Source of the DNA: an uncultured Methylomirabilota bacterium
GTDB taxonomy: Bacteria > Methylomirabilota > Methylomirabilia > Methylomirabilales > 2-02-FULL-66-22
Assembly (NCBI GenBank): GCA_963845565.1
Contig: CAWJSJ010000006.1
Location: 32,001 to 96,000 of the forward strand
Direction: 5' to 3'
DNA: 64,000 nt
Below are positions 16,610 through 42,315 of this stretch, piece after piece. Under the pieces are notes generated by a model. It was not told where the DNA came from. It made no database searches and worked only from the letters and a program-made list of their open reading frames with translations. How positions within the stretch are numbered: position 1 is the first letter of the stretch; each line of letters opens with the position of its first letter. A program made the position numbers and the translations under genes.

Positions 16610-17389
16610 ATGCGCTTTCCGACTACGCGGGAACGGGAGTATCTGAAGGACCTCCTTGTCGTCTTGACGCAAAAGGAGGTCAAGCTGCGTTACAAGAGCA
16701 GTTGGCTCGGGTACCTGTGGTCCGTCGCAAATCCGTTGGCGTTTGCCGCTCTGTATTTCGTCGCATTCAGCGTTTACATGCGGGTGGATATCCCGCGGTA
16801 TCCGTTGTTCCTCATTGCAGGGCTGTTCCCTTGGCAATGGATCGCCAATTCGACGGGCGCCGCACCGAACCTTTTTTTGACAAACACGAGCCTGATCAAA
16901 AAGATCAGGTTCCCACGAAATGTCCTGGTTGGGGCGGCGGTCCTGAACGATGGCATCCATTTTCTGTGCTCCATCCCGGTCCTGGTGGGATTTCTTCTGG
17001 CGTACGGCTCTCGCCCGTCGTGGTCCTGGCTGATTGGCATTCCGGTCCTCGCGCTGGGACAGTCGTTGCTCGTGTACGGACTCGCCTTGACCATAGCCAG
17101 CCTGAATCTTTTTTTCCGGGACCTGGAACGCCTCACGACACTCGTCGTCACGTTTCTATTTTTCCTGACGCCGATCGTTTATTCGGAATCCATGATTCCC
17201 GAAAAGTACCGTGCTCTTCTCTATCTCAATCCGGTTGCCCCGCTTATTCTGAGCTGGCGAGAGCTTTTCCTGTCCGGCGGTCTCGATTGGTCCGTCATTT
17301 CCCTCGGGTATCTCTACGCGGCCGGAGTGTTTGTGGTCGGGTCGCTCATCTATATGAAACTGTCGTGGAAGTTCGCCGAGGTCGTATGA
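16610..17389 (+). CDS. wzm: Polysaccharide ABC-2 permease (Wzm)
   Basis: KLRYKSSWLGYLWSVANPL, LIKKIRFP, FFRDL, FLTPIVYS, LNPV. Confidence 0.92.
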   Translation: MRFPTTREREYLKDLLVVLTQKEVKLRYKSSWLGYLWSVANPLAFAALYFVAFSVYMRVDIPRYPLFLIAGLFPWQWIANSTGAAPNLFLTNTSLIKKIRFPRNVLVGAAVLNDGIHFLCSIPVLVGFLLAYGSRPSWSWLIGIPVLALGQSLLVYGLALTIASLNLFFRDLERLTTLVVTFLFFLTPIVYSESMIPEKYRALLYLNPVAPLILSWRELFLSGGLDWSVISLGYLYAAGVFVVGSLIYMKLSWKFAEVV

Positions 17390-18123
17390 CCGCCGTACGG
17401 TTTGAGCATGTGTCCAAGTCGTATCCGATCTATAGCCAGATCTTGACTGGGCTCAAGGCGTCTCTGCTGAATGTGCCCCAGACGATCCAACGGTTCAAGC
17501 GGCACCGGTTTATGGCATTGGATGATGTGTCGTTTGAGGTCGGGCAGGGAGAATCGGTTGGCGTGATCGGGTCGAACGGGTCGGGAAAAAGCACGACCCT
17601 CGCGTTGACCGCCGGCGTTCTGCGGGCGCAATCGGGCAGGGTCGAGGTCCGGGGGCGCGTGTGCCCATTGCTCGAGCTCGGTGCGGGATTTCATCCCGAG
17701 TTGACCGGCCGCGAGAACATCCTTCTCAATGGTATCCTCCTTGGACTCACGCGGCGAGAGATCCTCGCACGAATGGACGAAATCATCGCCTTCAGCGAGC
17801 TGGAATCTTTCCTCGACCAGCCGCTCCGTACGTACTCCAGCGGCATGTACGCCCGGCTAGGCTTCTCGGTTGCCGTGCATCTGGAACCCGAAGTGTTTTT
17901 GATCGATGAAGTTCTGGCCGTCGGCGATTTGCGGTTTCAGGCGAAGTGTCGGGAGAAGCTTGAAGAATTCAAGAAGCGCCGTGTCACCATCGTGCTCGTC
18001 TCACATTCGCTGGCCGAAGTGCGCGGTTTCTGCGAGCGTGTGATCTGGCTGAAGGACGGAAAAGTCGCGGCCGACGGGGAGCCGGGTTCTGTCATCGCTC
18101 GGTACGAGGCAGCCATGGCTTGA
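17386..18123 (+). CDS. wzt: Polysaccharide ABC transporter ATPase (Wzt), no C-terminal carbohydrate-binding domain
   Basis: ALDDVSF, GSNGSGKST, LELGAGFHPELTGREN, YSSGMYARL, IDEVLAVGD; ATGA overlap with wzm; 245 aa. Confidence 0.92.
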   Translation: MTAVRFEHVSKSYPIYSQILTGLKASLLNVPQTIQRFKRHRFMALDDVSFEVGQGESVGVIGSNGSGKSTTLALTAGVLRAQSGRVEVRGRVCPLLELGAGFHPELTGRENILLNGILLGLTRREILARMDEIIAFSELESFLDQPLRTYSSGMYARLGFSVAVHLEPEVFLIDEVLAVGDLRFQAKCREKLEEFKKRRVTIVLVSHSLAEVRGFCERVIWLKDGKVAADGEPGSVIARYEAAMA

Positions 18124-18200: not shown

Positions 18201-19161
18201 TTACGGTTTGCGCCCAAGGACAGCGTAATCCTGGGGGCCGTGAAAATATTCATTGAAGCGCTCGGCGAGGTTGGAACCGTGCACTTGGGCTCTCTCCGGA
18301 TAAGGATGGAGGGGGACAACCTCGACAGCCGTGAAACCCTGCATCTCCATCACGAACTGCATCAGACCCGCCGGAATTGGTCTTCTGTGGGTGGGATCCA
18401 GGTAGAAGGTGCAGCTGCCCACCATCACGTTTTGAGGATTGGGCGTTTCGAAGATGGCAAGCCCTCCCGGTTTCAGGACGCGGTGCGTTTCGTCCAAGAG
18501 GGCTAACAGCACATCGAAAGGCAGGTGTTCGATGATGTGAAATCCCGTCACGGCGCCAACGGCCATGTCGGGAATGTTCCGCAAGTAGGAGAGCGCGTCC
18601 TCTTCGGCGATCTCGAGACCCATTTCGCGGCACCGTGCGATGGACACGCGATTGCAGATCAGCCCCTCTCGCCTTCAGCCCTTCGTCCCTGAGCAGTTCA
18701 AGCCATTCACCTCGTCCGCAACCGAGATCAACGATGGGCATAGCCTCCGTTCCGACTCCGGCTGCCCGGACCCGGGGAAGATGAGCGCGCAGGCGCATCT
18801 TGATGTCCTCCCGGCTCCCGCGAAACCGATCCTGAAACGCCGCATACCAGGCGTCGCGCGCATGCGCCTCCTCTTGCGCTGCCTGCGCAGATTGAGCAAC
18901 TGTCGTGGAGTCGTCACCAGGGCTCTTTGTGTTGGGGAGTCGGGCGTCGAAGCGTCCTTGTTGGAGATGGAGGGCCGATGTGAGATAGGAGATCTGGCGC
19001 AGGTCCTTGTTTCGTTCTTGCTGCAGCAGCTCGATTCGCATTTCCAGTTCCGTGATCGCTTGAGACAATCGTCCTAACGGGTCAGTTGCGGTGTGGTTGG
19101 GGTCGATCGGCTTGGTGGTGAAAAGGCGGGAGAAGCGGCGGATCACCTTCGTGATAAACAA
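18201..19161 (-). pseudogene. Class I SAM methyltransferase with N-terminal coiled coil (polysaccharide-cluster type), +1 frameshift near 18655
   Basis: FQDRFRGS, VDLGCGRGEWLELL in one frame; FHIIEHL, FETPNPQN, FYLDPTH in the next; removing one base gives GADL-NRVSIARC; TTG start after GGAGG is tentative. Confidence 0.82.
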
Positions 19162-19439
19162 GGCAAGCCTCCATCCCTCACCGTGATAGCTCGTCAACGC
19201 GGGTGGCTTCAGCGGAAGCCCGAACACTTTTCCGCCGCCCCGGCGGCGCCCACGTCCCCCGGCGCGCGAGACCTTCCTTCCCAGAGTGCTCCGCGGCGTC
19301 CACCTCCGGCTCCCCGGGTCCGACCGAGGTGGAGACTCAAACCGGGGCCGAGGCGCGGGGCTACGATGGACCGTAGCACCGAGGTCAGATCGTGTCAAGG
19401 CGCGCTCGGCCGCGTGAGAGGCCGAGCTCCTCATGATAC

Positions 19440-19468
19440 TTGTTCTCGCGCGTCCCCTGTCGTACAAT
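19440..19468 (+). promoter_or_regulatory. Putative sigma70 promoter
   Basis: TTGTTC-17 nt-TACAAT upstream of 19586. Confidence 0.45.
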
Positions 19469-19585
19469 CCAACGCTAACGCGTCTCTCCCTGTAGGCAGG
19501 CAGAGGAATCGGTGTCTTCCAATTCCACCAGGCAGCGGAGATTCGACGTTCAACCGATAGGGGACGATGGTCTGCCGGATTACCT

Positions 19586-20339
19586 ATGCCTATGAGAGAT
19601 GGGTCAGCGCTCAACGCCACATCACTTCGCCCCACCGGGTTGCCCTATACTTTCAAACCCGACCAGTATTCATCTCATGCCGCTATCGCCAGCACGATTC
19701 GGGAACGCGCCACGCAGGCTCGGGATGAGCCCTATTGCGTTCTGGACATCGGCTGTGCCTATGGCTTCTTGAGACCATACCTGCCTGCGCCGCGTTTCTA
19801 CTTGATCGGGGTGGAGCGTGACGAGAAGGCAGCCGACCAGGCACGGGCCTCTTATGACGAGATATACCTGGCGGACATCGTGACGGCGCGGCGCCTGCCC
19901 CTTCGTTGCCCTGTGAACACCATCGTATTCGGCGACATCTTGGAACACGTGGCGGATCCGCTCATGGTGCTGCAGTCGGTGCACCGGGATTATGCCGGCA
20001 ACACCACCCAGGTAGTGATTTCTCTGCCCAATGTTGCGCATCTGTATCTGCGGACTCAACCTGTTGCTGGGCCGATTCGAATATGCGGACCGAGGGATCA
20101 TGGATCGCACGCACCTCCGCTTCTTCACGCTCAGCACGGCCCGGCGACTTATCGCGGACAGCGGGCTGCAGCTTCGGTCTGTCGGTGCCACTCCCGTTCC
20201 CTTGCCGCTGATTCATTCGGCGTTTGGGGAAGGCCGTCTTCTCTTTCCGTTGCATCGGATCAACAGCCTGCTCGCAAAGACGTTCAAGACCTTCTTGGCG
20301 TATCAATTCATTCTGGAGGCGGATCGTGGAGGAGGTTAG
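19586..20339 (+). pseudogene. Class I SAM methyltransferase, +1 frameshift near 20054
   Basis: YSSH, VLDIGCAYG, FGDILEHVADP, SLPNVAH then LLLGRFEYADRGIMDRTHLRFFT in the shifted frame. Confidence 0.82.
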
Positions 20340-21111
20340 TGTACCGATCGCCGAGCGTAAAGTCATTGTGGTGATGCCGGCATATAACGCATCGCAGACG
20401 TTGAAGCTCACATACGCCGGTCTCCCTCACGATCGGATCGACGGGATTATCCTGGTGGACGACGGCAGCAAGGATGAGACGGTCCGCATCGCTAAGGAGT
20501 TGGGGCTTTCCGTTTTTTTGCATACGCACAACTTCGGCTATGGGGCGAATCAGAAAACCTGTTACCAAGAGGCGCTGAAGGCCGGCGCGACGATTATTGT
20601 CATGGTGCACCCGGACTACCAGTACGATCCGACGCTCTTGCCTGAGTTGATCCGACCGATTGAAGAAGGCCAGTGCGATGTCGTGTTCGGATCGCGCATG
20701 AAGGGTATATCCGCGTACCGGCAGGGGATGCCCTGGTGGAAGTATGTGTCCAACATCGCCCTGACGTGGCTTGAGAACAGGGTATTCGGCCTGCACCTGT
20801 CAGAGTTCCACACCGGCTACCGGGCGTACCGCCGCGAGGTGCTAGAGCAGGTGAGCTTCCTTGCCAATTCCGATGGTTTCATTTTTGACCAGCAAATTGT
20901 GGCCCAGTTCGCCTCCGGCGGATTTCGGATTGGTGAGATCTCAGTCCCGGTCCGGTATTTTCCAGAGGCATCCAGCGCGGGCCTGATCGCCAGTGTAGTC
21001 TATGGACTGGGAATCCTGTGGTTGTGTGTTCGGTATTCTCTGCACAAGCGGGGCCGCTGGCCAAGCATGCAGTACACCGTTCATGCCAGCCGGTATCGGC
21101 CCGCCAAATAG
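20326..21111 (+). CDS. Glycosyltransferase family 2 (Dpm1/polyprenyl-P glycosyltransferase-like)
   Basis: VVMPAYN, VDDGSKD, NFGYGANQKTCY, HPDYQYDP, SEFHTGYRAY; GTG start after GGAGG. Confidence 0.88.
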   Translation: MEEVSVPIAERKVIVVMPAYNASQTLKLTYAGLPHDRIDGIILVDDGSKDETVRIAKELGLSVFLHTHNFGYGANQKTCYQEALKAGATIIVMVHPDYQYDPTLLPELIRPIEEGQCDVVFGSRMKGISAYRQGMPWWKYVSNIALTWLENRVFGLHLSEFHTGYRAYRREVLEQVSFLANSDGFIFDQQIVAQFASGGFRIGEISVPVRYFPEASSAGLIASVVYGLGILWLCVRYSLHKRGRWPSMQYTVHASRYRPAK

Positions 21112-27500: not shown

Positions 27501-27605
27501 GTTCGCTCTTGACATCGGTGTCCCGCGCACTAGATACTCCCGCCCAGCGGCTGGGGAACCCCCGCGAGGCGCGGATCGCCAGCGCCGGTGGCCTCGTGGG
27601 ACGGG
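27501..27605 (+). promoter_or_regulatory. Promoter plus conserved leader, copy 1
   Basis: TTGACA-18-GATACT, CGGCTGGGGA, AGGCGCGGATCG, GCGCCGGTGGCCTCGTGGG; colinear with 28972-29076. Confidence 0.65.
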
Positions 27606-27671
27606 CAGCGGCGCGATCGTCGCGCCGGCCCCCAAAAGCAAATTCCTATCACCTTCTGGGAGAGTATCACC

Positions 27672-28859
27672 ATGCGCCTCAGGATCGTTGACTACGTCGC
27701 CAACCTGGGAGGCGGCGTTCGCTTCTGCGAACAAACGGTCCGAGCGCTGGTCCGCGGGAGAGACCTTGCGGTTGAGCTCGTCAGCCACGGTGCCGAGCTG
27801 CGCAGATACCAGGAGCTCCTCCGGTCGGTCGACCACGTCTCCTTCCTCGATATCCCCCCGGCCAACTTGCCGACATTCCGCGGATTCTCCGGTTTCAGAG
27901 GCGCGAACCGTCTGAACCGATGGCTGCGTCTTGGCAAGACGGACTTCCACTACGACGTGCCCCATCTTGCGCTCGCGGACTGCGATCTCGTGTGGTTTCC
28001 CTGGATCCATCGACACAGGATCCCCCGGGCCCGGGGTGCCAAAGTGATCGCGTCTCTTCACGACCTCATCTTCCTGCAGCTGCCCGAGCTCTTTCCGGGA
28101 TGGGGTCGGGCCAGCGAGGAGAAGACGATCGGGTCGTGGCTGGCCTCGAATGCCAAGATCGTGACCAGCTCGCACGCCACGGTCTCCGCATTGGTGCAGA
28201 TCTTCAAGTGCGAACCCGGCCGGCTGAACGTTATCCCCCTGTCCGGTCAGCACGTGCGCGAGGGAGAGTCGACACGGAAAACGTCCCCCGCCGTCGGAGG
28301 CTCCGGCTACCTGCTGTGTCCTGCAAACACAACGCCGCACAAGAACCATGAAGTCCTTTTCGCGGGCGTTGCCGCTGCCGGGATCGAGCGCCCATTGGTG
28401 CTGACCGGCGGTGCGACCGACTTCTGGACATCCACAGGATTACGGGACGCTGCGCTTCGGCGGCGCGCCAGGGAAGCCGGACTCAGTTGGGGGCGCTCAC
28501 TGATCGGCCTTGGGTACGTCGATGACGCGACCTACTTCGATCTGCTCGACGGTGCCTGGGCTTTGGTGATGCCCACGCTGGCTGAAGGGGGAGGAAGTTT
28601 CCCGGTGCTCGAGGCGATGCTGCGCGGCGTGCCGACGGTCGTCTCCGACATCCCCGTGATGCGGGAGATGGCCGAGAGGGTTGGCGGGTCGGTGCTCTGG
28701 TTCGATCCTCGGGACCCGAATGCTCTGGCATGCCAACTCCGCGAACTCGAGCGCGACTACCCCCGCTACAAGAAGGCAGCCGTGGAACAGATTTCCACGC
28801 TCCGGATGCGCAGCTGGGTGGATGTCGCCAACGACTACGCCGCGCTCATGGGACTCTAA
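27672..28859 (+). CDS. Glycosyltransferase family 4
   Basis: IASLHDL, YLLCPANTTPHKNH, LGYV, PTLAEGGGSFPVLEAM. Confidence 0.88.
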   Translation: MRLRIVDYVANLGGGVRFCEQTVRALVRGRDLAVELVSHGAELRRYQELLRSVDHVSFLDIPPANLPTFRGFSGFRGANRLNRWLRLGKTDFHYDVPHLALADCDLVWFPWIHRHRIPRARGAKVIASLHDLIFLQLPELFPGWGRASEEKTIGSWLASNAKIVTSSHATVSALVQIFKCEPGRLNVIPLSGQHVREGESTRKTSPAVGGSGYLLCPANTTPHKNHEVLFAGVAAAGIERPLVLTGGATDFWTSTGLRDAALRRRAREAGLSWGRSLIGLGYVDDATYFDLLDGAWALVMPTLAEGGGSFPVLEAMLRGVPTVVSDIPVMREMAERVGGSVLWFDPRDPNALACQLRELERDYPRYKKAAVEQISTLRMRSWVDVANDYAALMGL

Positions 28860-28971
28860 CGGTCGGGACGCTGGCGGCGGCGCTCCCCGCTAGGTCACGT
28901 AGTGGGGTGCCCGATGATCGTTGGGGGCCACTCGAGCAATGGCGGTGTGTCGGTCGTTTCGGGCGAAGACG

Positions 28972-29076
28972 TTTCGCCTTGATTTCCGCCTCCCGCATGC
29001 CCGATACTTTTGGGGTTCGGCTGGGGACACTCGGGCCAGGCGCGGATCGGCGGCGCCGGTGGCCTCGTGGGGCGGG
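28972..29076 (+). promoter_or_regulatory. Promoter plus conserved leader, copy 2
   Basis: TTGATT-18-GATACT and the same three downstream blocks at matching spacing. Confidence 0.62.
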
Positions 29077-29142: not shown

Positions 29143-30202
29143 ATGGTGTCTGAATCGACGGTCACAACGTTGCTGGAGAAGGAGATCCCCGGCTTCACCA
29201 TGGCGCGAGCCGGCGAGAGCTTCACGACGCTCGGGGTGGACAGCTTCGCGATGTTGGAGCTGCGCATCGTGATCGAGCATGCGATCGGCGCGACCATTCC
29301 CGACCCGGTGTGGGTGCAGCTCGACAGCCCGGCGCAGCTCGTCGCGCACCTCGGCGCAGCGCCCGCGCCGGTGGCCACACCGCCGCCGTCGGCTGACCTG
29401 CGCCGGCACTACGTGCTCAACATGCCGCAGATGGCGCTCGGTGGTCTGTCCGAGTCGTGGCTGTTCAAGGAGCTCGGGGACGCCCACTGGTCGATGATCA
29501 CCAGCGGTCTCGGGGCGCCGTCCAGCGCGCTGCGCGACGGCAACGGCGATCGCCTTTACGCGACGTTCGTACGGCTGCGCATCGAGGCGACGGTACCGCT
29601 GGCGCGCTTCGAGGAGAACGAGCCGCTGGCGCTCGAGGGGCGCATCGGCCGCTTCGGCGCCGGGATGTTTTTCAGCGAGATCGCGCTCGAGGGTGTCAAG
29701 GAGCGCGTCATGGCGTCGGTCATGTCGAGCTTCACCAAGCGCGGCTCACCCACGTCGAACACCAGCCTGCTGAAAGGCCAGCCGACCATCCCCGCCGGCT
29801 GCCCGATCGCGGATCTGTGCGCCATGCCACCGTTCGGTCAGGGCTACCGCGAGCGGCGCAGTGGAACACTGGCCCCGGCGCTGTTCGAAACCACGTACGA
29901 CATCATCCCGTATCACGACATCAACGGCGTGGGTCTCCTGTACTTCGCCGCATACCCGATCATCAGCGACATCTGCGAACTGAAGTACATCGACCGTGCC
30001 AACAACTGGGCCCTCGAGGCGAGCACGGTCTGCCGCGACGTCTATTACTTCGCCAACTGCGACACCCAAGACCGCCTGATCTACCGGGTACACGCGCGCC
30101 AGGACACACCCACCGGCGTCGACCTCGAGAGCTCGCTGTCGCGCGCGTCCGACGGCGCGCTGATGGCGTATTTCGTGACCCGGAAGCGTCGCCCGTGGGT
30201 AA
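29143..30202 (+). CDS. Acyl carrier protein fused to an LnmK/Pnap_2097-like double hot-dog acyltransferase/decarboxylase domain
   Basis: LGVDSFAMLEL (phosphopantetheine-site-like), PQMALGGLSESWLFKELGDAHW, RLYATF, DINGVGLLYFAAYP; as written the ORF reads to 30537, but removing one C at 30192-30194 gives TAA at 30200-30202. Confidence 0.78.
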
Positions 30203-30782
30203 GGCCTTCATCATCGGCAGTAGCGGGCACGCACGCGTCGTCGCGTCGATGCTCGACGTGGAACCGCAGTTCGTGGACCCCGATCGTGCGAGCGAGGACC
30301 GCGTCCTCGCTGAACTGGTCGCGGATCACGGCGGTGCGGACTTCTACCTCGGCATCGGGATCAATGCGGGTCGCCGGCGCGTGGCCGAGAAGCTGCGGGC
30401 GCTTGGCGCGCGACTGCCGCCGTGCGTGGCGCCGAACGCGTTCGTCGCCCGGGACGCCCAAGTCGCAGACGGGGCGGTGCTCTGTCTGGGCAGCCAGATC
30501 GGCTCGGGTGCGCACATCGGCTTCGCCTGCATCGTGAACACGCTGTCGAGCGTGGACCACGACTGCGTGCTCGGCGACTACACGCAGGTGACCGCGGGCG
30601 TGAACTTCGGCGGCTGGGTTGCCGTCGGGTCGAACGGCTTCTTCGGCATGAAGAGCGCGGTGATCCCGAAGTGCACCATCGGCGACGACGTCGTCGTGAT
30701 GGCGGGCGCGCTGGTGACACGCGACGTCCCCGACCGCGTCATGGTCGGCGGCAGCCCGGCGCGCATCGTCCGGCGCCTCTGA
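30195..30782 (+). CDS. NeuD/PglD-type sugar acyltransferase (left-handed beta-helix)
   Basis: IIGSSGHARVV, LGIGINAGR, IVNTLSSVDHDC, hexapeptide repeats, VGGSPAR. Confidence 0.87.
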   Translation: MGKAFIIGSSGHARVVASMLDVEPQFVDPDRASEDRVLAELVADHGGADFYLGIGINAGRRRVAEKLRALGARLPPCVAPNAFVARDAQVADGAVLCLGSQIGSGAHIGFACIVNTLSSVDHDCVLGDYTQVTAGVNFGGWVAVGSNGFFGMKSAVIPKCTIGDDVVVMAGALVTRDVPDRVMVGGSPARIVRRL

Positions 30783-30826: not shown

Positions 30827-32152
30827 TCAGCGGCAGGATTGTTCGAATATCCGCAGAGGTGCAATCGTATCCTGCATGGGCAACCCTTCTCTGGTTGCTC
30901 CCCAACTCACTAACAGATTTGCAAAAAATCGGCTCGCCTCGATAACCGGCTGGGTACGCGCCGCGCGAAGAGCGAAATCCACCAACCTATCCGCGTAGAG
31001 TCGAGGGCTGAAGGTCGCCGCTGCCCATTGGGCCGCCCGTTCGCCCAACGCCGACCGCTCAGCCGGGTTGTGCAGGAGGAATACCAGCGTTTTTTGCAGA
31101 TCGCTGATTTCCTGGTTGGGCGCCACCTTGCACACGCAATCGTCCGGAAGCTCGCGATAGAACCCCGTGTCGGTTACGACCACGGCTTTGCCACAGAGCA
31201 TCGCCTCGATGGTCGATGCCGACGCGGCTTCCAGCGGTGGAAACCGTAGACAGCACACCACATCGGCGCGATCAATGGCGTGCGCCAACGTGGCATCGTC
31301 CACCTCACCGGAAATCAGCAACCGCACACCCAAACTGTGCGCCAGGGCGGAAAGGCGGGCTTGGGCATCCGACTCGATGTGACCGACGAGCCGCAGGATG
31401 GCCGTGTTCTGCAACTGCGGAGAAGTTCCGATGGCGCGGAGGATGCTGTCGACCCGCTTGTTGGCGTTGATTCGCCCGATGGTCAGGACAAGCATGGCGT
31501 CGCGCGCGGCTGAACTGTCAACCGGCACCGAGGCAGAACCAGATCCGGTCGCCGGACTGGCCGTGGGTTTGTCGTACGCAAGTGGAATAACCTCCACCGG
31601 GCCGGGGCACGAGCGCAAGACCCGCTGGATATCCCAACTCGAGTGGGTGATGACCCCCGTCGCCATCGCAGCGACCCATTCCGTCATGGGAGCCTTCTCT
31701 CGCGTTCCCTCGATGTAATCCGCCGGGTTGTCGTAGGCAAAATAGGACGCAGCGACCTCCTCGCCATAGCACGATTGCAGGATCGCTTGCGCCACCGTCC
31801 AGCGCGCTCCCGCCCACCCCCTGAAGAGATCACCGAGGAAATAGTCGTGCAGGCACACGATACCGGGAAGCGAGGGGAGCCACTCCAGGCAACCGCGATG
31901 GAAGGGAAAGTTGCCCCCGATCTGGTACACGATGGCGTCGGCATCCCGCGCGACACGAAACACCCCGTCGGTATCGTCCCAGCGCACCATCCTGGTTCCG
32001 AATTGATGTGGAGGTGTTCCGAGGAGCGCGTAATCTTCCGTGCGCACGATGGTGACGGTGTGATCGCTCGCCATCAACTCCCTTCCCACCAGCTGCGTCA
32101 CGCGGCCGATGGCGGAGGACGAGGCCGCCGGAGTGAAGAAAAGGAATTTCAT
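30827..32152 (-). CDS. Glycosyltransferase family 4
   Basis: YQIGGNFPFH, VCLHD, GRINANKR, LRFPPLEAASASTIEAM; ATGA overlap with the upstream gene. Confidence 0.83.
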   Translation of the reverse strand: MKFLFFTPAASSSAIGRVTQLVGRELMASDHTVTIVRTEDYALLGTPPHQFGTRMVRWDDTDGVFRVARDADAIVYQIGGNFPFHRGCLEWLPSLPGIVCLHDYFLGDLFRGWAGARWTVAQAILQSCYGEEVAASYFAYDNPADYIEGTREKAPMTEWVAAMATGVITHSSWDIQRVLRSCPGPVEVIPLAYDKPTASPATGSGSASVPVDSSAARDAMLVLTIGRINANKRVDSILRAIGTSPQLQNTAILRLVGHIESDAQARLSALAHSLGVRLLISGEVDDATLAHAIDRADVVCCLRFPPLEAASASTIEAMLCGKAVVVTDTGFYRELPDDCVCKVAPNQEISDLQKTLVFLLHNPAERSALGERAAQWAAATFSPRLYADRLVDFALRAARTQPVIEASRFFANLLVSWGATREGLPMQDTIAPLRIFEQSCR

Positions 32153-33183
32153 GCGAGCAGTTTCTCCACAGTCTTGGGCCAGGTGATGCCCATGCCGAAC
32201 CAATGGTCACGGGCGGCGGTGCCGTATTTGACCGCGGAGGTCGCATCGAGGCAGGCGGCGGCCATGGCGTCTGCCAGCGCTTGCGGCTCTGGAGCCACAA
32301 CCCAGCCGGTTTCCAGGTGGCGAACCAAGTCACGCACGCCGCCACTGTCGTGGACGGTGATAACGGGCTTGCCGGCCGCCGCTGCCTCTGCCGCGACGTA
32401 GCCGAAGTCTTCGTTGTAGGGCACGCAGGCGCACGCCGCGGCATGATTCACCATCTGCGCGACTTCCGTGCGGGCCAAAAAACGTAAGTCGAGCGTGACC
32501 CGATCGCCGAGTTCCAGTGTTTCCACCAGTTGGGTCAGGCGCATTCCGTCTTCCGGCGTGTCAGGGGGGCCGGCGATCACGAGCCGCACTTGTGGCGGCG
32601 CCAACGCCAGAGCCTCCAAGAGGAGTTGCTGGCGTTTCATGCTATTGATCCGCCCGCCGGCAAAGACGTACCCCTCGGAAGGGCCCCCAGCGAACAGTTC
32701 CGCGTCGTTCAGCGGTGGAACGAGCACTTCTGCGTTCACGCCGTTGTAATGCGCCAACCGCTGCTGGGTGGTCTTCGAGATCGTGAAAAGGCCGCGGCTC
32801 TCTCCGAAGGCCTCATTGTCCGCGTTTCGGATGACGCGGCGGATCTCCTGCCCCGGAGGACCTTCGGGCAGGTTGCTTTGACCGGCGTCGTATAGATCGT
32901 AGGCTTGCCGGTACTGGTGGAGGACCCACAGGGTCTTATGCGGGTGACGAACGAGATAGGCCGGAAACTTGAGCGCGATGACGCGATCGACATTGAACAT
33001 CTCGAAGCCCCGGACCATCAGCATCTGGGACGGGATGCGGGGCGCCGGCTCCCATCGGAAAGGGATCCGAAGCACTTCGGCCTCATGGCCCGCGGCAATC
33101 AGATTCTTTTCGAGATTCGCGGCCAACTCCTCCGCTCCTCCCCAGACGAACGGGGCCATGTTGTTGACGACCAAGACCTTCAC
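32149..33183 (-). CDS. Glycosyltransferase family 4
   Basis: PFVWGGAE, KFPAY, LHQYRQAYDL, GRINSMKRQ, EDFGYVAAEA. Confidence 0.9.
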   Translation of the reverse strand: MKVLVVNNMAPFVWGGAEELAANLEKNLIAAGHEAEVLRIPFRWEPAPRIPSQMLMVRGFEMFNVDRVIALKFPAYLVRHPHKTLWVLHQYRQAYDLYDAGQSNLPEGPPGQEIRRVIRNADNEAFGESRGLFTISKTTQQRLAHYNGVNAEVLVPPLNDAELFAGGPSEGYVFAGGRINSMKRQQLLLEALALAPPQVRLVIAGPPDTPEDGMRLTQLVETLELGDRVTLDLRFLARTEVAQMVNHAAACACVPYNEDFGYVAAEAAAAGKPVITVHDSGGVRDLVRHLETGWVVAPEPQALADAMAAACLDATSAVKYGTAARDHWFGMGITWPKTVEKLLA

Positions 33184-34220
33184 GAGAGCAGCCTTTCGAT
33201 CACGTGCGGCCAGGAGATCTTCAACGCGCCGAGTCTGGCGTGGGCGTGCTGCCCCATCCGGCGAGTGGCCTCGCGGTCGAGGTAGAGCCTGTCCATGGCC
33301 TCGGCCAGCGCTACCGGATCGGGATCCACCACCAGGCCGTTACAGCCGTCCGTCACCAATTCCACAACTCCTCCGGAGTCCGTCGTGGTCAGCACCGGTT
33401 TGCTGGCATGGCTCGCTTCAAGGCTTGGGTATCCGTAGGAGTCCTCGTCGAGCGGCAGATAGGCCGCCGCCAGGCAGTCGGCCAGCACTGCGACCTTTTC
33501 CGACTCGCTGATCCACCGGTCTTCGAAGGTGACGCGGCTCTCCAAGCGGGCGGCCGCGATCTGCACGCGCAGATCGTTGGCGTACGCCTTCATGTAGCAT
33601 TCTCCGCTCAGGCGCAACTTCACACCGGTGGTTGTGTATTGCATGGCCTCCACGAGCAGGTGCTGCCGCTTGTGGTGTTCGACCCGGGACAGGTAGACGA
33701 CTTCGTCGTTGAACGATCCGCAACGGAAGCGCTCGGGCCGGTAAATCGGCGGGTACAGCACCTCGCTGTCCACCTTGTTATACGTCTTGACCCGGTCGGA
33801 CACCACCTGGGAGTTGGTGAACACCCGCCGAGCTTCGCGGAAGGCGGCTGTGTCTATGGCGTGCACGGCCTCGCGAAGACCCCGGTGTCGGCCATCGTCG
33901 GGGAACCCACGGTACTGGGTGTCCCAGAGGTCGTAGAAGGCCCGCAAGTGATGGATGAACCAGAGGATCTTCTGCGGGTGAGGAATCAGATGCGCCGGGG
34001 GCCGAAAACAGATGATGCGATCGACTGCATCCGTGAGATCGATCCACCGATACGCCATCATCTGGGGAACGAGCGAACCGGCGGTATTATAGGTCGCCGG
34101 CAGATAGATGCGCTCAACCTGGTGCCCCGCTTCCTGGAGGGCACTTTCGAGCCACTCGACAATGTTCTTGGCTCCTCCCTTGAGAAACGGCACAAAGGAG
34201 GAGCAGAGCGCTATCTTCAT
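33180..34220 (-). CDS. Glycosyltransferase family 4 (paralogue of the neighbouring gene)
   Basis: PFLKGGA, HHLRAFYDLW, SRVEHHKRQ, DEDSYGYPSLEA, TTDSGG. Confidence 0.9.
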   Translation of the reverse strand: MKIALCSSFVPFLKGGAKNIVEWLESALQEAGHQVERIYLPATYNTAGSLVPQMMAYRWIDLTDAVDRIICFRPPAHLIPHPQKILWFIHHLRAFYDLWDTQYRGFPDDGRHRGLREAVHAIDTAAFREARRVFTNSQVVSDRVKTYNKVDSEVLYPPIYRPERFRCGSFNDEVVYLSRVEHHKRQHLLVEAMQYTTTGVKLRLSGECYMKAYANDLRVQIAAARLESRVTFEDRWISESEKVAVLADCLAAAYLPLDEDSYGYPSLEASHASKPVLTTTDSGGVVELVTDGCNGLVVDPDPVALAEAMDRLYLDREATRRMGQHAHARLGALKISWPHVIERLLS

Positions 34221-35323
34221 ATGCGGGAAAGAGCGGCAGAGAGACCGTTTGCGATCCGCTGGACGTCGGATTCGTTCAGAAATTGATGCGTCGGAAGGTT
34301 GATGCCGCGTTGCGCCCAGGTATCGGCCACCGGATAGGCGGCAGGCTCCTGGTACGGAGGCAGCACGTGCATGGGATAGAAGACAGGGCGCGTCTCAATG
34401 CCCAACTCATCGAGTCGGCGCATCACGTCGTCGCGCTGCTGCTCGCCACCCTCACGCAGAAAGATTGTGTACATCCAATGGACCTGTTTAGCCCAGACTG
34501 CCTGGGTCGGAAGAAGAATCCGATCCGACAGGGGTGCCAGTGCGGCCTCATACCAGCGGGCAAGCGTGTGCCTTTCAGCAATCGCAGTCTCGATGGTCTC
34601 CATCTGGGCGAGACCCATGGCTGCCTGAATATTGGTCATCCGATAGTTGTAGCCAACGACGGGAAACCAGTAGCGTCGCTTGAGGTCCATGCCCTGCCCA
34701 CGGTAAAGGCGGAGCTTGGCTGCGAGTTCGTCGTCGTCGGTTGTGACCATTCCACCTTCGCCGGTCGTGACGATCTTGTTGCCAAAAAAACTGAAGGCCG
34801 CGCAATCGCCTAGGCCGCCGACCTTTCTCCCAAGGTACTCGGCACCATGTGCCTCGGCCGCGTCTTCAAGAACGAACAAACCATGCCGCGTAGCAATCTC
34901 GGCGACCGGTCCCATTTCGCACGGGTGTCCGTAGAGATGGACGGGGATGATGCCGCGCGTTCTGGGTGAGATCTTCCCCGTGATTCCAGCCGGGTTGATG
35001 TTCAGCGTGCCGGGGCACACATCCACCAGCACCGGGGTGGCGCCGCAGTAGCGCACCGCATTGGCGGTTGCGATATAGGTGACGGTAGGAATAAGGATCT
35101 CGTCTCCGGCTGCGACACCCAGGGCAACCAGCGCAAGGTGGAGGGCGACCGTGCCGTTACAGGTCGCGACCGCATGCTTTACGCCGCAAAACCGTGCAAA
35201 CGTCTCCTCGAACGCGCTGATGTACTTACCATGCGAAGAGATCCAGCCCGTGTCCAGGCAGTCTAATACGTACCGCCGTTCATTTCCGGCCAGTTTGGGT
35301 TGGGCGACCGAGATCCGTTGCAT
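34217..35323 (-). CDS. per: DegT/DnrJ/EryC1/StrS aminotransferase, probable GDP-perosamine synthase
   Basis: GWISSHG, NGTVALHLAL, EDAAEAHGA, SFFGNKIVTTGEGG, GYNYRMTN, IETRPVFYP; gmd nearby. Confidence 0.8.
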   Translation of the reverse strand: MQRISVAQPKLAGNERRYVLDCLDTGWISSHGKYISAFEETFARFCGVKHAVATCNGTVALHLALVALGVAAGDEILIPTVTYIATANAVRYCGATPVLVDVCPGTLNINPAGITGKISPRTRGIIPVHLYGHPCEMGPVAEIATRHGLFVLEDAAEAHGAEYLGRKVGGLGDCAAFSFFGNKIVTTGEGGMVTTDDDELAAKLRLYRGQGMDLKRRYWFPVVGYNYRMTNIQAAMGLAQMETIETAIAERHTLARWYEAALAPLSDRILLPTQAVWAKQVHWMYTIFLREGGEQQRDDVMRRLDELGIETRPVFYPMHVLPPYQEPAAYPVADTWAQRGINLPTHQFLNESDVQRIANGLSAALSRI

Positions 35324-35329
35324 GACGTT

Positions 35330-35977
35330 TCACTCCATGTACTCTTGCTTGATAACCCTTGCCGGAACACCCACCGCCACGGCTCCGTCCGGAATATTGC
35401 GGATCACGACACCGCCAGCGCCCACAATAGCCCTCCGCCCAATCTGCATACCCGGAATGACCTTGGCACCGGTTCCGAGAAAGGCGCCTTCTCCAACGGT
35501 CACGTTGCCTGCCAGCGCGCACTGCGGTCCGATGTGAACGCCACGACCGAGGTGGCAATCGTGATCAATAGTCGCGCCGGTATTGATAATGACCAAGTCA
35601 TCAACCACCGATGCCGCATTGATGACCGCGCCGGCCATGACCGCGATTCCACCGCCGAGTCGGACAGAGGGAGAAATGATTGCGTGGGGGCTGATGGCGT
35701 TAATCAATTGAAAGCCGACCCGTCTCACCACATCGGCTACCCGCTGCCGATTAGCATTCGATCCAATCGCCACGAACGCCCGGCAATAGCCCTTTTGCCG
35801 CAAGAGGGGCAGATGCTCGTCGCCTTCAAGACCCGATACACCGACACAGGTTTCGGCGCCGTGCGTCCGGCTCACGCAGTAGTCGACCGTTTCGCCGTTG
35901 GCCTGCAATATTTCAATGACGACCTTGGCATGGCCGCCTGCGCCAAGCACGACAACGTGTTCCTTGTGTTCCTTCAC
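35330..35977 (-). CDS. NeuD/PglD/PerB-type sugar N-acetyltransferase
   Basis: LGAGGHAKVV, VAIGSN, INTGATIDHDC, VGVPAR; GTGA overlap with the upstream gene. Confidence 0.9.
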   Translation of the reverse strand: MKEHKEHVVVLGAGGHAKVVIEILQANGETVDYCVSRTHGAETCVGVSGLEGDEHLPLLRQKGYCRAFVAIGSNANRQRVADVVRRVGFQLINAISPHAIISPSVRLGGGIAVMAGAVINAASVVDDLVIINTGATIDHDCHLGRGVHIGPQCALAGNVTVGEGAFLGTGAKVIPGMQIGRRAIVGAGGVVIRNIPDGAVAVGVPARVIKQEYME

Positions 35978-36993
35978 GGCCAAATCTCTGCCTTGCGCCA
36001 TACCTCCACACCAGGGCGAGCAAATAACAGATCGACTGACTCCACTCGGTCGAGCTTCTCTTCCGCCCAGGACTCTGGCACACCGGTTTTGTGGTCAATC
36101 ACCCGATATGCAAGCCCGAGGGCCTCAAAACGTGACAGCCAATCGCGTGTCGTGTGGCCGGCACGACGCACATGGGCAGGCACGAACTTGACCATCAAAG
36201 CCGCGCCATCGTTTTGTCGAATGAGTGACCCGCTCCCGCCTAGCACATCGAGTTCTGCCCCGTGGGCGTCAATCCTGATGAGAGTGACAACCGGATTGGA
36301 CGCCGTGACCTCGTCCAAAGTGACGCAGCAGACGTCAACCGGCGTGCGATGTATGTCCGCCGGACGCGACAGCGAAGAAAGCCCATGATGATCACTCGTC
36401 CCGTCCGGCAACAACTGCTGGCGGCCCGACCGACTGGACACGGCGGCCTGGTGGATGTCAACGATGCCGGAAAAACCGTTCAGCCCGACCGTCTTCTCCA
36501 GAAGGCGCTTGGTTGGTTCGCACGGTTCGAAAGCCACGACGCGGCCCACCCCCTGCATCGCTCTGGCGGCTGCAAGGGTGTGTACGCCGATGTTCGCACC
36601 AACGTCAATGAAGACATCCCCGGGCCCCAAGAGTTTCTGTATCAACCGACGTGTACCACGTTCGAGTTCGCCTTCGAGCAAGCCCGTGACGAGGGCATAA
36701 TCCCGGGGCGAGCACAAGACGTAGCCCACGTCCGATCGAACAAGCACCTCGTCGGGTCCACACACTACCATCACACGCCTATCAAGGCGGGCTGTAAGCT
36801 CGGCCACCTGAGTCCGTATTTCGTGTTGTAGTTTCGTCCTCAGTGCCTGCATGTCCTCTTGGAGTTTCGTCCTCAGTGCCTGCGTGTCCTCCTGCATCGG
36901 CGCTATGAGGTAGCGTCGAAGGGGCGAGACGATGCGGGCCAGCGTGGGCTTAATTCGTCGGACGACGGCGCGCACTGCTGAGTGCAGCGCCAT
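35974..36993 (-). CDS. FkbM-family methyltransferase with N-terminal coiled coil
   Basis: FIDVGANIGVH, VAFEP, TLDE, IRIDAHGAE; start uncertain (36993 or 37146). Confidence 0.8.
   Translation of the reverse strand: MALHSAVRAVVRRIKPTLARIVSPLRRYLIAPMQEDTQALRTKLQEDMQALRTKLQHEIRTQVAELTARLDRRVMVVCGPDEVLVRSDVGYVLCSPRDYALVTGLLEGELERGTRRLIQKLLGPGDVFIDVGANIGVHTLAAARAMQGVGRVVAFEPCEPTKRLLEKTVGLNGFSGIVDIHQAAVSSRSGRQQLLPDGTSDHHGLSSLSRPADIHRTPVDVCCVTLDEVTASNPVVTLIRIDAHGAELDVLGGSGSLIRQNDGAALMVKFVPAHVRRAGHTTRDWLSRFEALGLAYRVIDHKTGVPESWAEEKLDRVESVDLLFARPGVEVWRKAEIWP
36830..36895. repeat. 33-bp tandem duplication (11-aa coiled-coil unit)
   Basis: QEDTQALRTKL / QEDMQALRTKL; DNA units 36830-36862 and 36863-36895. 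Confidence 0.88.
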
Positions 36994-37606
36994 GCCCGCC
37001 CTGGCGCGAAACGCCTTCGAGGCCACGTTGTCATGGCTGCGGGGACCTGCGATATCGCGGATCTGAGAAGGGTAGAGCGCAAGCCGCCTCATTTGCGACT
37101 TGAAGGCAAGTTCAAGATCCACACCGGCCCGAAGTTTGTTGTGCATTCCCGACTCATTCAGACAGATGCCGAAAGGGGATCTTGGCACCACCAGAAGGAT
37201 ACGGCCAACAGCGGATTCGCTCCCCGTCTGAATCTTCTCTATCGCGGTCGGCCTCGCAGTCCAGTGGATGAGCTGCTGCCCGGTGACCATTCGCGGCGCC
37301 GCCCCGAGGGTTTACGGACGGCCGTCCGAGATCGAGACTGAATTCTGTCTCGGCGACGAATTGGCCGCCGCGCACTCGCCTCGCGCTCCTCGGTCGGCCA
37401 CAATACGCCACCCCACGAGAGAATACCACACACCGGCGACAAGCTATCAAGGCGAAGAGTGGGTGTCAAGAGTCAGTCTCTCCGTGGCGGCATCCGAACG
37501 CGTGTCTTCTTTTGCACGAACCCCAGCCTTGGAGTATACTGCCGAAAATTCCAGACCTGCTTGGCGGGGTAGCAAGCGGGCATTCCCGACGCCGAGGAGA
37601 CGACGA

Positions 37607-39614
<2,008 letters not shown>

Positions 39615-40852: not shown

Positions 40853-41153
40853 CGGGGCCGTCCCTATTCCTGGTTGAGGGTGTGAAAACGCGGAGCGCGT
40901 TCCAGCCGTTTGGGTTATGCCGTGCGAGCCATGGGGTTGGAGACACATCCCCGACCGACACCTTGTCCGCACCACACCCCTGCCGCAAGGCCCCGATCGG
41001 AAGCGAAGTATGCGGTGGTTCAGCGCTACCCGTCAAGCGGAAAGGCGGCGTGCGGGCAATGGGGCCACCGGGCTATCCCGTTGTCTGGCGAGTCGCTCTG
41101 TGGTACGTTCGCAATGATGCGGGCCGGTGGTCGGTACGGCGGTGGGGACTGGC

Positions 41154-42315
41154 ATGCGGGTGGCGCTCGTCCATGATTGGCTCACGGGGATGCGAGGCGG
41201 GGAGCGGTGTCTGGAGGTGTTCTGCGAGCTCTTTCCGGACGCAACGCTCTTCACGCTGATCCACGTGCCCGGGTCGGTGTCGGAACGGATCGAACGCATG
41301 CGGATTCGGGCCTCCGCCTTCAGCCGGTTGCCGGGGATCTCGCGCCGGTATCGCATGTTGTTGCCCCTCTTTCCGCGGGCCATAGAACGCTTCGACCTCA
41401 CCGGGTACGACCTGATCCTGTCCAGCAGCCACTGCGTCGCCAAGGGGGTGCGGGTTCCGCGGGGCGCGTTGCACATTTCGTACATCTTCACGCCGATGCG
41501 GTACGTCTGGGATCTCTACGACGACTATTTCGGGCCCGGACAGGGTAGCCCGCTTCGGCGGGCCGTGATGGCGATGCTTCGTCCGAGGCTGCAGCGCTGG
41601 GACGTGGCGGGCGCAGCGCGGGTCCACCACTTCGTGGCTATCTCGCGGTACATCGCGGATCGGGTCAAGCGTCACTATGGGCGCGAGGCCTCGGTCGTCT
41701 ATCCACCGGTGGACACGGCGCGATTCCGTCTCGGGCGAGGGGAAAGGAGAGTTCTACCTGATCGTCTCGGCGTTCGCACCGTACAAGCGCCTCGATCTGG
41801 CCGTCCAGGCCTGTAACGCACTCCGGCGGCCGTTGAAGATCGTCGGGACCGGGCAGGACGAACGAAAACTCCGGGTGCTGGCGGGTCCCACGGTGGAGTT
41901 CCTCGGGCCCCGGTCCGACGCGGAAATCGCCGACCTCTACCCTCGATGCCGGGCGCTGTTGTTCCCTGGGGTGGAGGACTTCGGGATCACCCCGCTCGAA
42001 GCGATGGCCTCGGGGCGTCCGGTTATCGCCTACGGCCAAGGCGGGGCGCTGGAGACCATCGTCCCGCTGGATCCCGCGGCGCCACGGACGCCCGGCCCGA
42101 CCGGAGTGTTCTTCGGGGCGCAGACCGTCGACGCGCTGGTGGCGGCCATCGAGCGATTCGAGGCCAACGCCGATCGCTTCGTTCCGGAGGCATTGCGGGA
42201 GCACGCTCTGGGTTTCGACCGCCAGGTATTCAAGGACAGGATCGAAGCGGTCGTCGCGGCGCGGTGGGCGACGCATGTCAATGAGCAGGGGCTGTCCGAT
42301 GCTGCGAAAACATAG
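41154..42315 (+). pseudogene. Glycosyltransferase family 4, +1 frameshift in the G run near 41733
   Basis: MRVALVHDWLTGMRGGE, SSHCVAKG, TPMRY, YPPVD then FYLIVSAFAPYKR, EDFGITPLEAMASG in the shifted frame. Confidence 0.85.

Follow-up and report, generated by a model that had tools for sequence, protein, structure and literature searches.

An ACP-LnmK cassette repeatedly coupled to sugar acyltransferases and its possible role in propionylating a surface amino sugar

The window analyzed here, a stretch of 64,000 nucleotides from an uncultured Methylomirabilota bacterium, holds in a perosamine/rhamnose glycan locus a two-gene cassette in which an acyl carrier protein (ACP) domain fused to an LnmK-family domain is followed by a PglD-like acyltransferase. 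In the reading that we favour, and on which we are evenly balanced, this patchily distributed cassette loads its own ACP with propionyl from (2R)-methylmalonyl-CoA and then N-acylates an NDP-amino sugar, here probably GDP-perosamine. The broader reading, in which donor and transferase are coupled whatever the acyl group, is distinctly probable. Self-loading, the propionyl identity, transfer from the ACP and the acceptor are all elements that we infer; of the neighbouring genes scanned, per alone encodes a sugar aminotransferase. Overall, the cassette is a real, repeatedly assembled module, which would act in an LnmK/LnmL-like manner and feed sugar acyltransferases. A route leading an LnmK-type, carrier-bound propionyl group to a surface amino sugar was not found in the literature searched. 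In that literature, which included few subscription journals, LnmK is never tied to glycans, this route is not described, and nothing appears under Pnap_2097, TIGR04098 or TIGR04099.

The fusion gene (29143-30202, plus strand, the end being given after repair of an extra base) encodes an ACP domain (residues 1-76; 29143-29370, plus strand) and an LnmK-family double-hotdog acyltransferase/decarboxylase domain (29407-30177, plus strand), the latter recognized by TIGR04098, alignment to 6x7l and Foldseek. Profile search reports PF00550 at residues 25-70 with 20.8 bits, which is exactly the gathering score, as the only Pfam match; the Mad single-hotdog family PF09500 is absent from the fusion. The ACP-family profile matches many solved ACPs, and the fusion possesses a helical domain with the conserved DS motif, Ser34 in GVDSF being the predicted phosphopantetheine site. 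The fusion scores 167.5 bits against TIGR04098 (curated cut-off 100), of which it is the sole match in the whole genome, and 129.8 bits against TIGR04099 (Pnap_2097), narrowly above the cut-off of 125. The first-pass annotation had proposed, from the letters of the DNA, an N-terminal ACP-like domain (LGVDSF) fused to an LnmK/Pnap_2097-like domain and an HMM search as a check; that search upholds the proposal, with the ACP match at its cut-off and the LnmK-type matches above theirs. In the AlphaFold model (pLDDT 89) a loose linker joins the helical domain to the double hotdog, and Foldseek returns LnmK for all of ranks 1-7 (best E 6.6e-21, TM-score 0.73-0.75 by target) at 18-19% identity in its alignments. 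FatA ranks lower in the same list. In acyl-ACP thioesterases of the FatA type the catalytic His sits in a DxNxHVNN motif; this His motif is absent from the fusion, which reads DINGVGLLYF, as does LnmK. By score, fold and residues the fusion is a member of the LnmK family, and it belongs neither to a beta-branching nor to a Nit1C system. The source genome carries three phosphopantetheinyl transferase (PPTase) genes and a methylmalonyl-CoA mutase, and no PPTase is seen adjoining the fusion among the annotated neighbours.

Alignment to the 6x7l chain, in its numbering, places LnmK Tyr62, Phe65, Asn216 and Asn263 at fusion residues Tyr139, Phe142, Asn261 and Asn305, the two conserved Asn being presumably tied to decarboxylation. 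Across 302 aligned rows, which combine the loci with database proteins and include many close relatives, these residues are kept in 283 (Tyr139), 293 (Phe142), 301 (Asn261) and 299 (Asn305) rows, and the ACP Ser34 in 277 of the 278 rows that have an ACP domain. According to PMC11350588, LnmK decarboxylates (2R)-methylmalonyl-CoA and passes propionyl via Tyr62 to the ACP LnmL, and PMC8666670 names an Asn loop in LnmK. His115 and Arg137 are invariant in the fusion family at positions where LnmK has Thr38 and Pro60, and with an identity of 18-19% this means that the specificity of the fusion may differ from that of LnmK. The Tyr nucleophile is replaced in 19 of the 302 rows, mostly in one fused Xanthobacteraceae-like clade with Leu or Phe. 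Six of the surveyed loci (L009, L021, L028, L030, L032 and L033) encode CatB/Vat-like hexapeptide-ACP-LnmK fusions with Leu or Phe in place of this Tyr, and these may be decarboxylase-only variants.

The second gene of the cassette (30195-30782, plus strand), whose GTG start overlaps the fusion stop by 8 nt, encodes a left-handed beta-helix acyltransferase of the PglD/PerB fold with PglD_N and Hexapep domains (Pfam). Its closest solved structure is PerB (80 bits). With the PerB/PglD/NeuD family (TIGR03570; PDB 4EA7) it shares the N-terminal nucleotide-sugar domain followed by the beta-helix, the DHD base with catalytic His122, whose counterpart is the residue altered in PerB entry 4eaa, and the oxyanion glycine; we take the base and the glycine to have the roles that they have in PerB-type transferases. 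However, it reaches only 151.7 bits against TIGR03570 (NeuD/PglD/VioB), under the cut-off of 160.8, its N-domain is shorter, it is linked to ACP-LnmK, and it has the features of a separate clade: in the cassette transferases the second His is replaced by an invariant Gln131, and GxKS and MAG motifs are present. An invariant Met169 and a nearly invariant Lys153 take the place of small residues of CoA-using relatives, changes that, judged from the alignment, may have a structural meaning for donor use. In a quick tree, 29 cassette transferases form a clade apart from seven conventional ones (SH-aLRT 100). Among the best 150 protein-library representatives, 37 contain a domain of at least 180 bits and 31 of these 37 carry Gln131, so the clade is small. 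The high scores of long representatives come from tandem PglD repeats, each of which contributes to the total. Net charge fails to separate cassette from canonical transferases, and modelling the ACP domain in complex with the transferase trimer gave a score of 0.00, a result that counts neither way. Two library proteins combine the elements otherwise: in P0123 a transferase of the cassette type is joined to a conventional PglD-like one, and P0125 is a NeuC-ACP-LnmK fusion; for both the longest contig is 18802 bases, and they may lie together.

The cassette lies beside a perosamine gene cluster. The per gene (34217-35323, minus strand) encodes a GDP-perosamine synthase (3bn1, E 2e-147, 494 bits to perosamine synthetase), gmd (38628-39614, plus strand), which passes TIGR01472, would give the 4-keto precursor of perosamine, and rmd (37607-38584, plus strand), which matches 2pk3, would give GDP-D-rhamnose. 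The first-pass annotation also placed a second, conventional acetyltransferase beside per, and this is indeed perB (35330-36001, minus strand), a perosamine N-acetyltransferase with 205.5 bits against the TIGR03570 cut-off of 160.8 and 219 bits to PerB (4ea7). Next to it lies a gene for an FkbM-type methyltransferase with a coiled-coil region (35974-37290, minus strand), possibly a chain-capping enzyme. Domain search identifies three GT4 glycosyltransferases convergent on the cassette (30827-34220, minus strand) and wzm/wzt (16610-18123). A further GT4 glycosyltransferase (27672-28859, plus strand) lies upstream of the cassette and may act on the acylated sugar; in the two closest relatives whose loci reach upstream (L083 and L085), GT4, fusion and transferase form one block, and other DNA is inserted at ~30790. 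The GC content is 0.64-0.70 in this block against 0.59-0.60 in per and perB. A degenerate copy of a promoter-like leader (28979-29076, plus strand) precedes the fusion and resembles the leader before the GT4 gene (27509-27605); the 53-nt core common to both ends 67 nt upstream of each start codon. TIGR04098 and the cassette transferase are both absent from the 20 same-genus genomes searched, and in 40 genomes of the same order there is one weak, sub-cut-off TIGR04098 match (in the unpublished genome G028). The transferase profile returns only conventional-level scores in 40 relatives. Because the cassette is absent in kin, forms one block with GT4, differs in GC and is preceded by a worn leader copy, the data fit its addition to a perosamine/rhamnose cluster in which PerB was already present.

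Some features of the DNA near the cassette were noted in passing. The repeated leader reads TTGACA, 18 nt, GATACT, then ~110 conserved bases ending in the CCTATCACC motif; it occurs in the window at 27509-27660 and 28979-29076 and at 13 further places on contigs C1 and C2 of the source genome (G000), and many loose contig ends fall within it. A regulatory leader and a family of small RNAs are both possible readings of it; between 27300 and 31000 the window has no Rfam family. The spacer after the GT4 stop (28853-28930) is predicted to fold as a DNA hairpin of -16.4 kcal/mol on the top strand, which starts with TAAC, ends near GTT and is loosely attC-like.

Scanning one genome per species gave 286 confirmed relatives, the best 80 of which were examined, and 80 metagenome loci were added (160 in total). 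Among the best 80 of the 286 genome loci, 29 have ACP-LnmK fused in frame to a hexapeptide acyltransferase and 26 adjoin one (55/80), against control figures, from the same loci, of 29 among the 616 other genes and 12 among the 77 glycan genes; the coupling of ACP-LnmK to an acyltransferase, first proposed for the window, thus extends to its homologues. In this set of the best 80, the fusions are N-terminal in 28 cases and C-terminal in one (L054, doubtful), and the adjoining partners comprise 13 of the window type, eight convergent EpsC-like ones in related Flavobacteriales and five others. As for the remaining 25 of the best 80, five adjoin a GNAT, eight an acyltransferase-3 (AT3) or MBOAT gene, 11 are without partner, and one has a window-type transferase 4.5 kb away. 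The hexapeptide partners are CatB/Vat-like, WbbJ-like, EpsC-like and NeuD-like, all of them under the curated cut-offs. Even though kin loci are not independent, the scatter of these types over a quick LnmK tree (L041 was left out as too short) points to repeated pairing. Fusions are found in 32 of the 120 near homologues listed and in 18 of 19 longer ones, and the protein lists also show two GNAT fusions and one NeuC fusion with ACP-LnmK. Overlaps of 4-8 nt between fusion and transferase genes recur in Bacteroidota, Myxococcota and Alphaproteobacteria.

The surveyed loci also display several other arrangements. In L008, L011, L012 and L017-L019, ACP-LnmK lies between an acyltransferase-3 gene and an MBOAT and SGNH pair, several of these having an N-terminal hydrophobic extension of ~90 residues, an arrangement that resembles a trans-envelope O-acylation system. 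In L024, L103, L109 and L141 the ACP is a separate gene and a polysaccharide deacetylase lies upstream, possibly for deacetylation and then re-acylation. By eye, the two-gene cassette sits among phage-like genes in L027 (6112-7741) and L135. The fusion has no match in phages, and on plasmids no transferase match reaches 60% identity, the 15 listed lying at 30-37%.

Gene order indicates what the cassette may act upon. In a legionaminic-acid cluster (L004) the order is legB, legC, neuC, neuB, cassette and CMP-transferase; in a Pgl-like cluster (L082) it is sugar-phosphate transferase, cassette, aminotransferase and dehydratase; and in L079 wzm, wzt and a Per-like aminotransferase (46% to per) precede the cassette. 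The cassette therefore fills the N-acyltransferase slot in several amino-sugar pathways, legionaminic-acid, PglD-type and perosamine-like. Four Acidobacteria have the order aminotransferase, GNAT, ACP-LnmK. A search that was not conditioned on LnmK, covering 300 further genomes in each of two families, added one window-type transferase (in G616), which is atypical in being without Gln131; it lies opposite a Per-like aminotransferase gene that neighbours a flagellin-like one, ACP-LnmK is absent for 20 kb around, and the only TIGR04098 match of that genome is a Nit1C gene. This neighbourhood supports an amino-sugar acceptor for the transferase clade. The expectation that homologues are linked to glycan loci holds in part: the N-acyltransferase slot is filled in the clusters above, but glycan markers lie within 6 kb of 40 of the best 80 of 286 loci (36 when a lone epimerase is left aside), a lower bound given the few markers used, and near nine of the 15 loci that have a window-type acyltransferase. 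One Bradyrhizobium-like clade carries the cassette after lon, where glycan genes are absent, and the transferase is lacking in three of its six genomes (L005-L007). None of the 160 loci contains a methylmalonyl-CoA mutase gene. Co-occurrence of a mutase elsewhere in the genome was rejected as support, as it does not discriminate: a mutase is present in 48 of 50 host genomes drawn from 80 loci and in 46 of 80 random genomes of the class of G066, with 31 of 35 among random genomes of that class of at least 2.6 Mb.

LnmK and LnmL of leinamycin biosynthesis (PDB 4HZN/4HZO/6X7L; LrgK/LrgL in largimycin) share with the cassette the double-hotdog fold, the equivalents of Tyr62/Phe65/Asn216/Asn263 and an ACP partner. 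In contrast, the ACP of the cassette is fused, and its partner is a sugar acyltransferase instead of an HMG-CoA-synthase beta-branching cassette. The LnmKLM beta-branching cassette accompanies an HMG-CoA synthase and a trans-AT polyketide synthase, whereas no ketosynthase (KS) or ECH match was obtained in the 160 cassette loci or on contig C6, which carries the window; the absence of a ketosynthase, noted at first for the window, thus holds for its whole contig. With the Pnap_2097 family (TIGR04099), whose cut-off it passes, the fusion has His115 and Arg137 in common, as judged by aligning a single Nit1C member. Of four distant members inspected, three lack an ACP and belong to the Nit1C nitrilase cluster and the fourth lies in an adenylation-enzyme cluster, whereas the gene in the window is fused to an ACP and its scanned neighbours are glycan genes. 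A Nit1C copy scores 298 bits against TIGR04098, the fusion 168. In one Nit1C locus (L165, 9980-12951; NZ_CP126319.1) the Pnap_2097 gene overlaps a methylmalonyl-CoA mutase gene at the cluster end, a weak association seen in one of three annotated Nit1C loci. Concerning non-acetyl N-acyl groups, the wbeL region of Vibrio cholerae O1 includes the carrier protein WbeK, and we know of no LnmK there. As proposed for the cassette, dedicated genes supply the non-acetyl group in the tetronate acylation of V. cholerae O1 perosamine (wbeL region), by a route that uses WbeL with its putative ATP-binding domain (PMC3441752).

Taken together, these elements suggest the following route. A host PPTase would prime Ser34, the site and three PPTase genes being present. 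The double hotdog would decarboxylate (2R)-methylmalonyl-CoA, the probable substrate, and pass the propionyl via Tyr139 to the fused ACP, a step modelled on LnmK serving LnmL and consistent with the fold and residues observed. From this ACP as putative donor, the paired transferase would N-acylate a 4-amino sugar by His122, as its residues and gene position suggest, with GDP-perosamine as probable acceptor. The GT4 of the block, or the GT4s of the per operon, would then incorporate the product into a surface glycan that is exported by an ABC transporter and contains both propionyl and acetyl perosamine. A tethered donor would allow a rarer acyl group to be used without competition from acetyl-CoA. 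Among the findings that speak against this route, PerB already serves per, and 11 of the best 80 of 286 loci show no transferase partner. The recruitment of a polyketide-type module to supply an unusual acyl group, as the first-pass annotation had it, is thus backed by the domains, the LnmK residues, the coupling to acyltransferases and the N-acyltransferase slot, but the glycan linkage is only partial. A bolder and more tentative reading, which we consider somewhat less likely to be right than wrong, makes ACP-LnmK a widespread plug-in acyl donor, docked repeatedly onto unrelated transferases to propionylate surface glycans. Its partners would include four or more hexapeptide subfamilies, GNAT and perhaps AT3/MBOAT, along with a dedicated, acyl-ACP-dependent PglD-like clade, and ACP-LnmK would be a genetically defined way of making perosamine, bacillosamine and legionaminic acid in their N-propionyl forms.

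The main rival keeps the same coupling and changes the donor to acetyl-ACP, made from malonyl-CoA or malonyl-ACP, so that the cassette would be a private acetyl supply for an ordinary acetylated sugar. The closest parallel is that of MadA/MadB with GlmU, where, according to PMC8666670, hotdog decarboxylases likewise make a short acyl-ACP, acetyl-ACP, for an amino-sugar acetyltransferase, GlmU has a higher affinity for acetyl-ACP than for acetyl-CoA, and MadA is itself fused to a GNAT. Unlike the cassette, Mad is a housekeeping system with a single hotdog (Pfam_09500) that uses the host FAS ACP and has no private ACP, and no self-loading Tyr is described for it. All partner families of ACP-LnmK are annotated as acetyltransferases, and the Tyr-less clade could act only as an ACP-bound decarboxylase. 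Nevertheless, the domain of the cassette is LnmK-like and not Pfam_09500, and a second acetyl route next to PerB would add little. Moreover, work by Stunkard in 2021 is said to describe a strong preference of LnmK for methylmalonyl-CoA. We regard the acetyl donor as improbable, though it deserves serious consideration.

A looser coupling, in which the fusion does no more than decarboxylate and set free propionyl-CoA or acetyl-CoA, or acts in another pathway, and a CoA-dependent transferase has no need of the ACP, is slightly less probable still. It would account for the loss of the transferase in L005-L007, its absence from 11 of the best 80 of 286 loci, the related transferase of G616 without a fusion and the unchanged PerB-type catalytic residues. 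It sits poorly with the in-frame fusions in 29 of the same best 80 loci, the conservation of the ACP serine (277 of 278 rows), the 4-8 nt overlaps repeated in three phyla or classes, and Met169 and Lys153 in place of the small residues of CoA-using relatives, if these have the structural meaning suggested above. Transfer of an intact methylmalonyl or malonyl group, yielding an acidic acyl decoration, appears very unlikely: the low identity to LnmK and the family-specific His115 and Arg137 near the nucleophile motif would allow it, but both Asn that we presume to be linked to decarboxylation in LnmK are kept.

Gene clusters with NeuD/PglD-like genes are routinely read as makers of N-acetyl sugars. 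If the cassette supplies propionyl, as in the reading that we favour, it would be a sequence marker altering the glycans predicted in Alphaproteobacteria, Bacteroidota, Myxococcota and Acidobacteriota, and LnmK chemistry would move from polyketide beta-branching to cell-surface diversification, which can change phage and antibody recognition. A self-loading donor whose transferases can be exchanged would, in addition, be useful for producing amino sugars with acyl groups other than acetyl. Relatives of the cassette are carried by cultured strains: Bradyrhizobium sp. AUGA SZCCT0283 has the two-gene form, and Mucilaginibacter rivuli and Sphingomonas tabacisoli have other forms.

Lastly, the fusion had been described as overlapping the NeuD/PglD-type gene; the true overlap is most likely 8 nt, and the long overlap of the assembly is most likely a frameshift error that is repaired in near-identical contigs. 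In the assembly, a stop at codon 353 is missing and the fusion frame continues across the acyltransferase, in a different frame, to 30537, adding ~115 unrelated residues past the normal end. The stop codon at 30200-30202 is masked by an extra base at 30187 (plus strand), which most likely arose in the assembly, as indicated by other contigs, related loci and a database protein. Four public runs were aligned to the region, two of them not bridging the 30187 site. A public contig of 2083 nt (~98.8% identical, 25 differences) is without base 30187, a second near-identical contig carries two extra bases after 30186, and the near-identical contigs encode a fusion of 352-353 residues with an 8-nt overlap. 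The in-frame stop form occurs in six related loci, and the end comes at 352 residues in a database protein whose sequence agrees with the first 348 codons of the fusion. Another single-base surplus, near 41736 against three runs, splits a GT4 gene at 41127/41677 and makes an assembly error likelier than a strain mutation at 30187. That the fusion is truly frameshifted in the source strain and the cassette decaying, as the ~115 unrelated residues might suggest, is highly improbable given the stop in near-identical contigs, at least one other single-base insertion in the same assembly and the position of both catalytic domains upstream of the shift. The idea that ACP, LnmK and NeuD form a natural triple fusion in the window was likewise rejected, since the repaired frame of other contigs gives a stop. 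One C-terminal fusion of this type occurs in L054, whose assembly has many split genes and in which it may be an artefact; none further appeared in longer-protein searches or among the 150 representatives. Split genes are also seen elsewhere in the window, namely the GT4 gene at 41127-42315 and the methyltransferase genes at 18201-19635 and 19586-20374, the latter two frameshifted in appearance.
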